From positions 1,167,923 through 1,231,922 of the forward strand of contig CAWAXD010000014.1 in the NCBI GenBank assembly GCA_963785985.1: a DNA stretch of 64,000 nucleotides, written 5' to 3'. Below the pieces are notes generated by a model. It searched no databases, was not told where the DNA came from, and saw only the letters and a program-made list of their open reading frames with translations. Below, piece after piece: positions 47,456 through 54,897 of this stretch (the stretch's first letter is position 1; each line of letters begins with the position of its first letter). This DNA is from an uncultured delta proteobacterium. Its GTDB lineage: Bacteria > Myxococcota_A > UBA9160 > SMWR01. A program made the position numbers and the translations under genes.

Positions 47456-47821
47456 TCACTCGCCCAGGTCGACGCGTATGCTCGCGCGGTCGATTCGGCC
47501 CTCCTTCTCGAAGATGGCGATAGTGCCTTGTCGACCGTTGCTGAATCGAACCACATATTCATAGTCGCCTGGGCCGCTTGAGTCCCGTCTCATTATTTCG
47601 AAGTCGGGCGTGATTTGCGACCGTGCCTCGTCGATCAATTTGAGATTTGCCTCGTACGTGAATTTCCGATGGAGTTCGGTGTTATCGACGGCCGATCTAA
47701 CGTACTCGCGCAAGAACGCACGGCGCTTCGCTTCCGCACCAGCATCTCCGCAGCTCATCTGCGGAATGAGTAGAAGCGCGGCCGCGACCGCAAACCAAAG
47801 CCAACGCAAGCGAGCCCTCAT
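47456..47821 (-). CDS. secreted (possibly lipoprotein) 121-aa protein, candidate cognate immunity protein of the RHS payload
   Basis: Its start overlaps the RHS stop by 4 nt (47818-47821). It has the signal peptide MRARLRWLWFAVAAALLLIPQMSCG and sits in the lowest-G+C stretch of the locus. No family recognised. Confidence 0.5.
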   Translation of the reverse strand: MRARLRWLWFAVAAALLLIPQMSCGDAGAEAKRRAFLREYVRSAVDNTELHRKFTYEANLKLIDEARSQITPDFEIMRRDSSGPGDYEYVVRFSNGRQGTIAIFEKEGRIDRASIRVDLGE

Positions 47822-53800: not shown

Positions 53801-54897
53801 CAGAACGTTCCGTTCAAGCCCGATGGCGTTCCGCCGTTTCCGTAGCTGAACGAGTATTCGAGGGGAATCTCCGAGGTGAGCAATGTCACCCTCTCCCGGA
53901 CGGAGACGAGACGGCTACGCGCAGATGCAGGGCTCTCCTCGTAAGTCAGCGCGTACCTACGGACTAGGCTCCCATCCACCCTCGATTCGATTCTGCGCAA
54001 CCGTTGCCCGACTCTGCGAGCGAAACCCGTTCGATACTGCGTTTGGAGATCGAGTCGGGTGTTCTCATAGATGAAGTTGACCACGCGTGTGCGAGCGAAC
54101 GACTCGAGGTTGGTGTCTCCGAAACCCGGGACGGAACCGATCGCGCCCGGCAAGTGCAGGGAGTAGGTGATGCTCGTGAGATACCGCATGCCGGGATCGG
54201 CATCGACGAAGTCAGCACCGCTCGTGGTCCCCCACTGAAGCCTCATGACGTTCCCGTTGCGATCCTCGACGCGGTCGAGATACCACGCGAATGGGATCAG
54301 TCTGTTCACGATCGTTTCAAAATTGGAAGAGGAGCAACCCGCGAGGGGAGCCGGACAACTCGCCGCGGTCGGGTCGGAGGCACGGACTTCCTCATTAGCG
54401 AGTAGCGAGCCCGAGTAAGAGAATCCTCCGGAATAGTAGATAAACCCTGGCGCTGATCCGAAGTAGAGCCGCGTCCCGTCGGGACGAAGCACCCTCCAGC
54501 TGTCGCTATTCGTCGTGACGAGGTGTTCGATTCGCGTGAAATCGTGATTTTCGGAGACATAGCGACCAGGTATCCCCGTCGGCTTCAAGCGACTTCCCGC
54601 GAGCTCGAAGGTGTCAGTCGCGTCGTAGGCTGGCGCCCCGTCTCGTGTCGAACGTTGAATTACCGACGGCCCGATGTCTAGCGACCATCCCACTCCGAGC
54701 GGCCCGCTGTCTCGCGTTGCTGCCGAGTTGTATTCGAGCGCGACTTCGGGCGTGAGGCCGCCCGTTCCCGGTGCGACGACGATCGGAATCCTGAACGTCG
54801 CGTCGCCAGTGAATTCGCTCGGCGCCACATGAGCGGAAGTCGCCGACAGCGTACTGTGCAAGTGTCGGCGCATCGACCGGGAGGCCGGTTGGTGCAT
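47818..54897 (-). CDS. TcB/TcC-like fusion polymorphic toxin: SpvB-N, FG-GAP/VCBS propeller, TcdB-mid-like, RHS/YD repeats, RHS core, unknown 253-aa C-terminal domain
   Basis: 2359-aa intact ORF with FRIPIVVAPGTGGLTPEVALEYNS...GPLGVGWSLD and calcium-loop repeats VDVNSDGYPDVV, DLNGDGRQDVL, IDANGDGRDDLV, DINTDGLPDIL, IDINGDGGPDRI, DVNADGMVDIL. It has many YD repeats (YDAFDQL, YDARGLV, YDPLGRL, YDAAGNV...) and the core FYLTDHLGST...GLYMLGARVYDPETGRFLEPDP...SPLNLIDPTGYY. Confidence 0.9.
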   Translation of the reverse strand: MHQPASRSMRRHLHSTLSATSAHVAPSEFTGDATFRIPIVVAPGTGGLTPEVALEYNSAATRDSGPLGVGWSLDIGPSVIQRSTRDGAPAYDATDTFELAGSRLKPTGIPGRYVSENHDFTRIEHLVTTNSDSWRVLRPDGTRLYFGSAPGFIYYSGGFSYSGSLLANEEVRASDPTAASCPAPLAGCSSSNFETIVNRLIPFAWYLDRVEDRNGNVMRLQWGTTSGADFVDADPGMRYLTSITYSLHLPGAIGSVPGFGDTNLESFARTRVVNFIYENTRLDLQTQYRTGFARRVGQRLRRIESRVDGSLVRRYALTYEESPASARSRLVSVRERVTLLTSEIPLEYSFSYGNGGTPSGLNGTFWSGLDARWRLPGGLTYVSDGQDQGLRIVDVNSDGYPDVVQAVPGAGNTYLGGPDGFQLGAAPSWALPVNLKDQYGYTGAVFGDLNGDGRQDVLQRRIAITGTNESPDSCTGGGSNHRHEVGPTPNDPSSAVDANEAFINTGSGWDPDPADEAGIKYYQTDFQVILGSSLHSCPYEYLPTAERVIGAAGSFDQGVRLIDANGDGRDDLVYDRNLYGVHPAPGDKWWRTSERRAGTLMNSVGGLASGVFNAYHNSMVTRMDDTVTERQTKFVKLYDHPKWQVPAYFPSDSYSWSHLNTCKASNTLADGHSGKDRFADINTDGLPDILENIVSHGVPPAASVAHFRELVNNGYGWQFNQSNPNTTWLHYEVFDGGYSLQANTSNCSEEDASTAADWGTRLIDINGDGGPDRIGGTVQPGGNDDFRQSGLWGARLFGTGSAASIWHLTPEWNTPVGFSAASGLDTGARLADVNADGMVDILVSAGAYLNLGKSPDMLETVTTPGGAVTTIEYRPYSAFGTAPQVNPDVDGQRRYSQPRWVVSRITADPGAAFSQPAIVQDFVYYEPVYDIADRAFRGFGRVLALGPVVGPVRSATETTFHTSDALRGMPRQVVVASVSAAPGNPSSTLLRKTLYDYAHASGATPTPVVTFSDGSTGTLSSIGDTQTGYAFSAFAALMNGSSVSSQAFLAFPVRQTDEEYEGQASPAVTQTRRSFDLYGNVVEIARLGDPATSSDDITTTMSYAIADSVAGSGMLLADRPASIVVVGNASGVPVGTTLTRALEILYDGNSGNPLNQTIVRGNPTRVRQAWTNALGAPTVVQIDRTFDVYGNLIRADAPFDVNAPGSDRAFKSVLYDSASQTFPVQVTVGSTAGSQYNLTTSMAYELAGCGGPLGMGLPCRITSPNGQIETTTYDPWGREIASTGPNGGATSTLYYDADRGTANQRTESRVRWSATAPADPAQDSNAIVAVTFYDGFGRPLEERKSGIGSNVARRMTYYDAAGRAASISRWDFGSAPVASTFYDYDAIGRTLAETLPDGTLRAFAYGHREATTTTTIPGDGLVHRRTVRQDAHGRLSEVLEYASPAGAPARTTYTYDAFDQLVLVRDAIANDQSLCGSSSACAGQTHETNVFFDELGNRTRLVDPDSGTWISQYDARGLVGLTQDPRGKIQIFAYDPLGRLKTRTPTATGENGDVYTYGLDSQVPTELGRLISAADGAGTDSFQYDAAGNVSLHSRTLFARRFDFARSYDPLGRVVQTIYPDGEIATSHFDKGLLTRISSIGGAYSGDYVSSVTYDALDRPLNLGLGGSVSSPLATKVRQFDAISGRLVRMEGRVASQLVAEANYSIDGAGRVRSQTGNTLSVGSGVLQTFSMSYAYDGLDRIVQTPGASYIYNYDALGNIIEKDHQAPNDLGWASLVYDDPVRPHALKHAVATSGTRTLDYEYDSAGNVIHKTRTGFQGAAGQGAATVDFTYNSLGRMTVLAASNGGNATFSYAADGRRLSTRRGLTEIVALPEPGYEYNVIQQRVNKHFFVDGVRVASSARTWAAPSAALPPLLTWRAPNLPELPLGALGAGYGALGLLLVGVALRRRARETGRGTLALRLGSVGTLLVAAPALIASPCGVGPPPITPGLGMHDEPALFYLTDHLGSTILTIEDGGTARNRYYFLPFGDPGIASEGPSLRHRFTGEEILEGTGLYMLGARVYDPETGRFLEPDPIVPDAANPQSFNRYSYAYNSPLNLIDPTGYYSQGSGEPAPPPRGNAPSSSANYGFSSHGPGNLHLHHLPTDPASVRFMQELADVIARWAANPMPATHPSLSRRELADVTASWGRNPGSQRVLSDPLRQQAIRSYADSLAVEAQSGRITDLEALARVSDFAASFGTDAGTFVDDIGSTLARTSRANPATPLDNNIPPFGDRGFYSLFRDGGNQVRHFTGAFVAGGAFGSIGGPLANTSREIFGGGGFSTADILLGNSAALLGASVTSGGMPPSMVGPMIREVFGP

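Follow-up and report, generated by a model that had tools for sequence, protein, structure and literature searches.

The 64-kb stretch of contig CAWAXD010000014.1 analysed here (the window, 64,000 nucleotides (nt) in full) encodes on its minus strand a large RHS toxin followed directly by a small lipoprotein gene. We consider it likely that the two genes form a toxin-immunity pair of the TcdB/TcaC class, carried on a horizontally acquired island flanked by insertion sequences (IS) in an uncultured Myxococcota bacterium. The class was delineated by Zhang, de Souza, Anantharaman, Iyer & Aravind (2012, Biol Direct 7:18, PMC3482391); its members combine a signal peptide, an SpvB domain, an integrin-like propeller, RHS repeats and a variable toxin, have an immunity gene directly downstream, occur in many phyla including delta-proteobacteria, and make no use of TcA. 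An earlier note on this DNA had called the protein an orphan with unexplained export. The architecture is instead that of this established, TcA-independent class of polymorphic toxins, and an RHS protein resembling TcB-TcC that comes with no TcA, PAAR or VgrG is a member of a class known since 2012, not a puzzle. What look new are an uncharacterised all-alpha family of payloads and the lipoprotein immunity family paired with it, and a two-helix hairpin before the RHS core.

Domain organization of the toxin

The open reading frame (ORF) of the toxin was divided into the following regions, numbered in amino acids (aa) of the ORF as listed, using hidden Markov models (HMMs), motif positions and a structural model:

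47818-54897, minus strand: fused TcB-TcC-like RHS toxin ORF, 2359 aa as listed, uninterrupted (ORF reading, HMMs, fold search)
53788-54813, minus strand: SpvB/TcB N-terminal shell region, aa 29 to ~370 (Pfam SpvB, fold match)
52318-53775, minus strand: FG-GAP beta-propeller, aa ~375-860 (Pfam FG-GAP_3 and FG-GAP, motif positions, strands in the model)
52057-52425, minus strand: TcdB_toxin_midN-like segment, aa 825-947 (Pfam, 3.3e-13)
49198-51900, minus strand: RHS/YD-repeat shell, aa ~1000-1900 (Pfam RHS_repeat at 1e-26, TIGR01643, ten YDxxG motifs)
48583-48903, minus strand: RHS-associated core, aa 1999-2105 (TIGR03696, PDB sequence matches, alignment)

The earlier note had read the order SpvB, FG-GAP, TcdB-mid, RHS and core directly from the ORF and had named an HMM search as a check; Pfam and NCBIfam matches bore out this order, and SpvB, TcdB_toxin_midN, FG-GAP, RHS_repeat and the RHS core were all matched. 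SpvB was found at aa 29-100 (4e-13), FG-GAP_3 at aa 394-458 (8e-11; FG-GAP_3 and FG-GAP together cover aa 393-458) and the RHS-associated core TIGR03696 at aa 2027-2104 (6.6e-20). The "six or more" calcium loops of that reading were located as six DxNxDGxxD motifs (D.N.DG..D) in the propeller, at aa 394, 448, 563, 680, 764 and 832, and the two strings it had quoted, FRGFGRV (aa 936) and TTFHTSDALRG, are both in the ORF. The core bears YDPETGRF and an autoproteolysis-type P-x4-DPTG-Y motif (NSPLNLIDPTGY), and it also has the DPxxGRF aspartate of autoproteolytic RHS toxins.

A plain sequence search of the toxin against solved structures matched the RHS core only (Rhs, SGS1 and TccC2 cores) and recovered no TcB subunit. 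The best match of the core was SGS1 (2e-11), accompanied by the Rhs proteins 8h8a, 7q97 and 8qjc of type VI secretion systems (T6SS) and, weakly, by TccC2 (6e-5). A structure of residues 1-1160 was then modelled from a 17-sequence family alignment (pTM 0.80, mean pLDDT 75) and used to search the PDB, so that the fold comparison concerns this part. In this search, which answers to the structural check proposed in the earlier note, TcB subunits ranked first: the 13 best matches were all of this kind (TcdB2-TccC3, TcdB1 and YenB; E 1e-30 to 2e-35), with TMq 0.46-0.55 across ~1300 columns. The isolated SpvB N-domain 6p0x was matched as well (TMt 0.66), and fold matches beyond TcB were far weaker, with TM 0.29 for SGS1, ~0.15 for T6SS Rhs and 0.07 for teneurin. 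HMMs and fold search thus concur with the earlier reading, and the protein is predicted to be a fused TcB-TcC-type cocoon.

A signal peptide concealed by two frame switches

The ORF as listed (from 54897) has no signal peptide, and to this extent the earlier statement that none is recognisable was correct. It does not hold for the DNA upstream, in which a ribosome-binding site, a start codon and an out-of-frame Sec signal peptide were found:

54999-55003, minus strand: Shine-Dalgarno sequence GGAGG, 8 nt upstream of the start codon (read from the sequence)
54905-54990, minus strand: start ATG (first base 54990) and Sec signal peptide MQR(L)NLRGAQYLALYLSIQQLSFSIPAGA/S (three-frame translation, reconstruction, alignment with the relatives P0002-P0009)
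54826-54855, minus strand: second frame switch, restoring the frame shared by the ATG and the long ORF (located by homology, with "...APTLAQ" before it and "APSEFTGDATF" after it)

As assembled, the ATG at 54990 reads M-Q-R-stop. One base off its frame the minus strand encodes LNLRGAQYLALYLSIQQLSFSIPAGASLNAPTGLPVDAPTLAQ, which aligns with the signal peptides of relatives such as LAFQQLTFAVPARALVNAPTGVPVDAPTLAQ of P0002; the first frame switch falls after ~54982, where one base is apparently absent. All eight close relatives (P0002-P0009) have a Sec signal peptide at the N-terminus, composed of a basic n-region, a hydrophobic core bearing the subfamily-specific QQL and, just before ..QAGKPLD, an A-x-A site. 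In the wider family, an N-terminal hydrophobic segment shortly before the SpvB motif was found in at least 74 of 120 matches. Export is therefore no longer without explanation as the earlier note had it, since the close relatives carry Sec signals throughout and the toxin's own signal is encoded, although shifted out of frame.

The apparent absence of the signal peptide is most likely an artefact of two indels, because housekeeping genes of the window are frameshift-split as well and the contig is a megabase metagenome contig. The C-terminal domain of an acyl-CoA dehydrogenase is divided between two overlapping frames, with the break at profile positions 42-49, an aldehyde dehydrogenase is spread over at least three frames (positions 2-156 and 333-461 in different ORFs), and a thiolase and a cobW-type GTPase have no N-termini. 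Such split genes suggest an indel-prone long-read assembly. Split or end-lacking genes lie at 22398-24401 (-), 29066-30371 (+), 31325-32125 (+), 33811-35339 (+), 19139-21014 (-) and 2704-6466 (+), and those affected are the aldehyde dehydrogenase, two acyl-CoA dehydrogenases, the thiolase, the cobW GTPase and possibly a histidine kinase. The hidden signal peptide is a caution for scans of long-read metagenome-assembled genomes (MAGs), and other "truncated" or "start-less" genes of the window need the same care.

The signal peptides of P0002-P0009 and of the window share a further trait: QQL or QQF is kept in the hydrophobic core, and ..(L/V)QAGKP(L/I)D.. follows right after A-x-A. Conservation this strong is rare among signal peptides. 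The two motifs, which are absent in more distant relatives, could be a specialised sorting cue.

The payload and its predicted lipoprotein immunity partner

Beyond the RHS core, the toxin ends in a variable payload, whose gene overlaps that of a small lipoprotein:

47821-48582, minus strand: C-terminal payload, aa 2106-2359 (region after the RHS core)
47821-48330, minus strand: conserved all-alpha toxin domain, last 170 aa of the payload (HMMER, alignment, model)
47456-47821, minus strand: predicted immunity gene, 121-aa lipoprotein (translation; homologs abut the same payload elsewhere)

The alignment consensus of the relatives revealed that the family body is conserved up to the DPxGL site and unalignable beyond it; the tails after DPxGL measure 217-256 aa in the relatives and 254 aa in the window. 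An exhaustive HMMER search retrieved 120 cluster representatives matching the last ~160 residues of the payload, 20 of them below 1e-10. Some follow the DPxGL of other RHS proteins, one of which is an SpvB + NHL + RHS protein of 3042 aa, and many are short stand-alone ORFs or cassettes. Across the payload alignment, Q and H (NQVRHF), E (N-x-x-R-E) and D (A-D-V-x-L-G-N) are invariant, and G-F, D and N nearly so. The AlphaFold model of the payload is an all-alpha fold of six helices (pLDDT 92, pTM 0.88). No match was returned by a word-indexed protein search or by a profile search of the PDB, no credible one by Pfam (29 members scanned), and the best Foldseek hit in the PDB, at TM ~0.3, was not credible either. 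A pore-forming glycine-zipper payload, initially guessed from the Gly-rich tail, was downgraded in view of the invariant Q/H/E/D residues and the compact six-helix model. The payload thus represents a toxin family that is uncharacterised and probably enzymatic.

The gene of the 121-aa protein overlaps the toxin stop codon by 4 nt, and its product has a signal peptide with a lipobox-like Cys (...LLLIPQMSCGD...). Small genes also abut the toxin stop in three other carriers of this payload; they encode proteins of 114, 132 and 114 aa that are homologous to the 121-aa protein (36, 34 and 20% identity, respectively), all with a signal peptide ending in a lipobox Cys. A lipoprotein gene thus adjoins the payload in four independent loci, the window and three unrelated RHS toxins. 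Because the lipoprotein homologs co-vary with the same payload on unrelated scaffolds, we assign the 121-aa lipoprotein as the putative cognate immunity partner, and this covariation points to bacterial targets. Since the immunity protein is predicted to be exported as a lipoprotein, the envelope or periplasm of neighbouring bacteria is the most likely site of payload action. A payload family of ~120 cluster representatives without a Pfam or PDB match, together with a new lipoprotein immunity family, points to an unfamiliar envelope-directed activity.

Two sibling toxins served as controls. The immunity candidate of P0005 is Imm26-like and predicted to be cytoplasmic (L001 16986-17519), and that of P0008, which has a Gly-rich payload, has two hydrophobic segments (L036 17005-17340). 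Immunity localisation therefore tracks the payload, and one cocoon scaffold seems to serve payloads with different destination compartments. Sibling payloads and partners include DUF2380 with Gmx_para_CXXCG, Tox-REase-7 and an Imm26-like neighbour; DUF2380 and Gmx_para_CXXCG are Myxococcus paralog families.

A hydrophobic hairpin before the RHS core

Kyte-Doolittle analysis revealed two hydrophobic stretches between shell and core:

48949-49125, minus strand: conserved hydrophobic hairpin, aa 1925-1983, consisting of transmembrane segment 1 (TM1), RRR with a short basic loop, and TM2 (Kyte-Doolittle, alignment)

The stretches span aa 1925-1947 and 1957-1983, with 19-residue means of 1.83 and 1.82, and form part of an insert of ~100 aa that separates the final strand of the shell (VNKHFFVxGxRVASS) from the core (LFYxTDHLGST). 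The hairpin is kept in all nine aligned subfamily members, and a hairpin 100-140 aa before DPxxGRF was found in 17 of 120 family matches, alphaproteobacterial proteins among them. No description of it was found in Zhang 2012 (PMC3482391) or by full-text search. In a Sec-exported chain, the positive-inside rule would place the hairpin N-out, loop-in and C-out, tethering the cocoon to the inner membrane. The hairpin may accordingly be an anchor, an insertion device or a buried packing element. That it is a built-in membrane element, either a cocoon anchor or a target-membrane inserter, taking over in cis part of the role at the membrane that TcA (in Tc toxins) or prePAAR helices (in T6SS Rhs effectors) play in trans, is a tentative idea that we regard as doubtful. 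If true, it would, together with the unfamiliar payload-immunity pair, amount to a new delivery variant of RHS cocoons and offer a way into how YD-shell toxins lacking both TcA and T6SS reach their targets; its presence in 17 of the 120 relatives bears on the display and delivery of Sec-exported YD-shell toxins.

In P0002, P0003 and P0010, dockerin- or thrombospondin-like calcium-binding repeats (DxNGDGxVGxxD...) are inserted just upstream of the hairpin, reaching ~200 aa in P0010. Large insertions are thus tolerated at the shell-core junction.

Genomic context of the toxin and its relatives

Composition profiles place the toxin and the predicted immunity gene on an island whose G+C (~0.54-0.65) lies below that of the flanks (0.70-0.73, ~0.71), which hold ordinary metabolic and sensor genes rich in G+C at third codon positions (GC3):

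43750-55500, no strand: low-G+C island with toxin, immunity gene and IS elements (composition profiles)
44564-47072, minus strand: IS3-family element, orfA 46452-47015 and orfB 44630-45442 (Pfam, NCBIfam, inverted repeats)
45508-46761, minus strand: IS30-family element interrupting the IS3 element between orfA and orfB, transposase 45527-46696 (Pfam, NCBIfam, inverted repeats)

The terminal inverted repeats are 40 nt long for IS3 (44564-44603 and 47033-47072) and 38 nt for IS30 (45508-45545 and 46724-46761). No convincing target-site duplications or att-like direct repeats were found at the island borders, no tRNA in the 64-kb window, and no Pfam or NCBIfam match for ORF 42469-43749 (+) and the other island ORFs. 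An inverted match of 56 nt (82%) links 43545-43600 and 47323-47378; each arm can be read as coding, giving PFTAYGLFNTDGFQYKRL and PFTDYELFNTTGFQ*KRL. Of the two, the second, stop-bearing arm lies between the immunity gene and the right end of IS3, and the intact copy is in ORF ~42469-43749 (+); the second arm may be a pseudogene fragment left by IS-mediated rearrangement.

The remainder of the window encodes beta-oxidation enzymes, dehydrogenases, histidine kinases, an aquaporin, a HerA-like ATPase and glycosyltransferases. In the HerA-like ORF, 38162-41539 (+), the domain lies solely at aa 659-1093, and the part coding for the first ~650 aa coincides with a minus-strand ORF (38063-39886) that has the stronger GC3 bias (0.90) and no Pfam match, both gene calls being tentative. 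Relatives of the DUF3516 helicase of the window are named Myxococcota, Myxococcales or Deltaproteobacteria, the named ones reaching 82% identity. The host is an uncultured Myxococcota bacterium and a diderm; an RND pump with OEP, a diderm marker, neighbours the toxin genes of relatives. Pfam scans of ~50 ORFs found no TcA (VRP1, TcA_TcB_BD), PAAR, VgrG, T6SS or holin/endolysin/spanin gene in the window, which upholds the earlier claim that TcA, PAAR and VgrG are missing from these 64 kb.

The toxin protein itself is on record from one contig of 1.59 Mb. Its eight closest relatives, all metagenomic, share 41-51% identity with it over ~90% of its length. Four close relatives have no TcA, T6SS or lysis genes beside them, their neighbours being response regulators, sigma-54 activators, RND pumps and transposases, and no TcA was found beside ~14 relatives with readable flanks. 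A further 30 distant loci, at no more than 29% identity, come from Planctomycetes, Omnitrophota, Syntrophales, Bacteroidales, Actinomadura, Streptomyces, a Woesearchaeota MAG and others. They contain no second TcA-sized ORF, and ten of their largest flanking ORFs carry unrelated domains, one of them a GspD secretin. This single case, a GspD-type secretin ~1.4 kb upstream of a distant SpvB-RHS relative in a Smithella MAG (L013 6362-8575 (-)), hints at an outer-membrane route. A conserved upstream partner gene was considered and rejected, as the upstream ORFs of relatives (106-127 aa) resemble neither each other nor the upstream region of the window. Upstream of the window's toxin lies a divergent GAF histidine kinase gene (55549-56859), and in two of four close relatives a sigma-54-dependent activator is encoded 1-2 kb upstream of the toxin (L036 6909-8246; P0002 contig 8339-9442). 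Such activator and kinase neighbours may reflect regulated expression.

Proposed mechanism and alternative explanations

In the mechanism that we propose, the toxin would be made with an N-terminal Sec signal, which is encoded here and found family-wide, and would be exported to the periplasm. There its SpvB-like, TcdB-mid and RHS segments would form a closed TcB/TcC-type cocoon with the six-bladed FG-GAP propeller as its gate, as the computed fold similarity suggests. By the precedent of TcC and Rhs proteins, the RHS core would cleave at the P-x4-DPTG-Y motif found in it and leave the ~250-aa payload free inside the shell. The all-alpha, enzyme-like payload would then act in the envelope or periplasm of neighbouring bacteria, matching the exported lipoprotein immunity protein, and the outcome might be contact-dependent competition or kin discrimination, by analogy with the T6SS-independent Rhs toxins of Myxococcus xanthus. 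TcA would not be required, and the pre-core hairpin could serve either to hold the cocoon at a membrane or to aid its insertion. Of the delivery question raised in the earlier note, the Sec signal would thereby explain export across the inner membrane.

Several points weigh against this proposal. Export beyond the periplasm is without explanation, as for the whole class, and the hairpin, if integrated in the inner membrane, would hold the protein in the producer. Payload activity and target are read solely from the lipoprotein signal of the immunity protein, and the search for TcA and T6SS covered the 64-kb window and the relatives' flanks out of the whole genome. The signal peptide is out of frame as assembled; the two indels lie within ~150 nt beside 7 kb of intact ORF, more clustered than the error rate of the window predicts; and no second assembly of the 5' region turned up when metagenomes were scanned with a pattern that crosses the first frame switch.

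These last points bear on an alternative in which the 5' frameshifts are real, the identity of the toxin being the same and the locus holding a recently inactivated, non-exported copy on a decaying, IS-invaded island. Two compensating frame switches so close together with the next 7 kb intact, the nested IS3/IS30 elements and pseudogene-like fragment beside the immunity gene, and the failure of any other assembly in the metagenome scan to confirm an intact 5' end would all suit it. The other split housekeeping genes in the window, however, fit long-read error better than biology, and a stop-free ORF of 7 kb speaks against long-standing decay, so that we consider a real disruption unlikely. Much less probable still is a true orphan, a BC subunit from an ABC (Tc) toxin that docks on a TcA encoded elsewhere and delivers into eukaryotic cells, for example of protists or invertebrates, even though no other structures match nearly as well as TcB subunits, the 254-aa tail falls within the 201-400 aa range of TcC hypervariable regions (PMC7861908), orphan TcC genes and natural B-C fusions are on record (Song et al. 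2021), and the TcA search had the scope just given. The family has Sec signal peptides, and Tc subunits are not known to carry them. The Tc toxin of Yersinia entomophaga is released by lysis dependent on a type X secretion system (PMC10847048). Moreover, TcA stands beside none of the ~14 relatives with readable flanks, the plain sequence search recovered no TcB and TccC2 only weakly (6e-5), and the predicted exported immunity protein co-varies with the payload, pointing to bacterial rather than eukaryotic targets. The same Sec signals count against a T6SS-delivered Rhs effector with its PAAR or VgrG partner outside the window, to which we give almost no credence: the RHS core does resemble T6SS Rhs effector cores in sequence (8h8a, 7q97, 8qjc), but neither protein nor window has a PAAR, prePAAR or VgrG domain, and the N-terminal 1160 aa score TM ~0.15 to T6SS Rhs against 0.5 to TcB. 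A TcdB/TcaC-class toxin-immunity pair remains the reading that we prefer.

Comparison with known systems

All the defining features of the TcdB/TcaC class are present in the window or in close relatives. The signal peptide, SpvB domain and propeller occur together in all eight close relatives, and in the window once two frame switches are corrected. The conserved body ends in an exchangeable C-terminal toxin, whose homologs sit on other RHS scaffolds and in stand-alone cassettes, and a putative immunity gene follows immediately downstream. The window differs from other members in that its payload and immunity families lie outside the Pfam families annotated for them, and in the hairpin before the core, which is not mentioned in PMC3482391.

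The TcB-TcC cocoons (TcdB2-TccC3, 4O9X and 6H6G; TcdB1-TccC2, 6L7I; YenB-YenC, 4IGL) have the same domain order and are the best structural match; they share the RHS core with its P-x4-D-x-x-G cleavage motif, and the payload length lies in the TcC hypervariable range. However, identity is only ~15%, and the protein described here joins the B and C parts in one chain, belongs to a family with a Sec signal and an immunity gene, has no TcA or lysis cassette in the 64-kb window, combines a propeller region of ~485 aa with a hairpin before the core, and comes from a free-living Myxococcota host. Compared with the BC component of an ABC (Tc) toxin, it thus has the domain order, but no TcA was found in the window or in relatives' flanks and no lysis genes in the window, its family carries Sec signals, and a putative immunity gene adjoins its payload. 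Natural B-C fusions and orphan TcCs were noted by Song et al. (2021) and left out of their Tc census.

T6SS Rhs effectors have a PAAR or prePAAR domain or a VgrG or EagR partner, none of which was found in the protein or the window, and their folds are remote (TM ~0.15). Mosquito SGS1 has both a Tc-like shell and membrane helices, the latter predicted (PMC9935623); its hydrophobic helices, however, come after the cleavage site, as cargo, whereas those of the present protein precede the core and would stay on the shell. Bacterial teneurin-like proteins (TLPs) are Sec-exported YD-shell toxins enriched in Myxococcota, with no known delivery machinery, and in the words of a 2026 study of such toxins, how they are delivered and released is among the things that "remain to be elucidated" (PMC13018210). 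TLPs have an FN-plug, an NHL propeller and a TIP domain, in contrast to the SpvB N-terminus and FG-GAP propeller found here (teneurin TM 0.07).

With autoproteolytic RHS toxins the protein shares a core that has both P-x4-D-P-x-G and the DPxxGRF aspartate, consistent with self-cleavage of the same type. From the same phylum come Rhs4 and Rhs5 of Myxococcus xanthus, which have signal sequences, are independent of T6SS and act in kin discrimination (PMC10433427). The likeness, drawn from their published description, is that of large, signal-bearing proteins on mobile DNA with a polymorphic C-terminal toxin, although Rhs4 and Rhs5 measure ~4000 aa and lie on Mx-alpha prophages. With neither PAAR nor VgrG and with a Sec signal in its family, the protein described here adds a further Myxococcota RHS toxin without a T6SS link.

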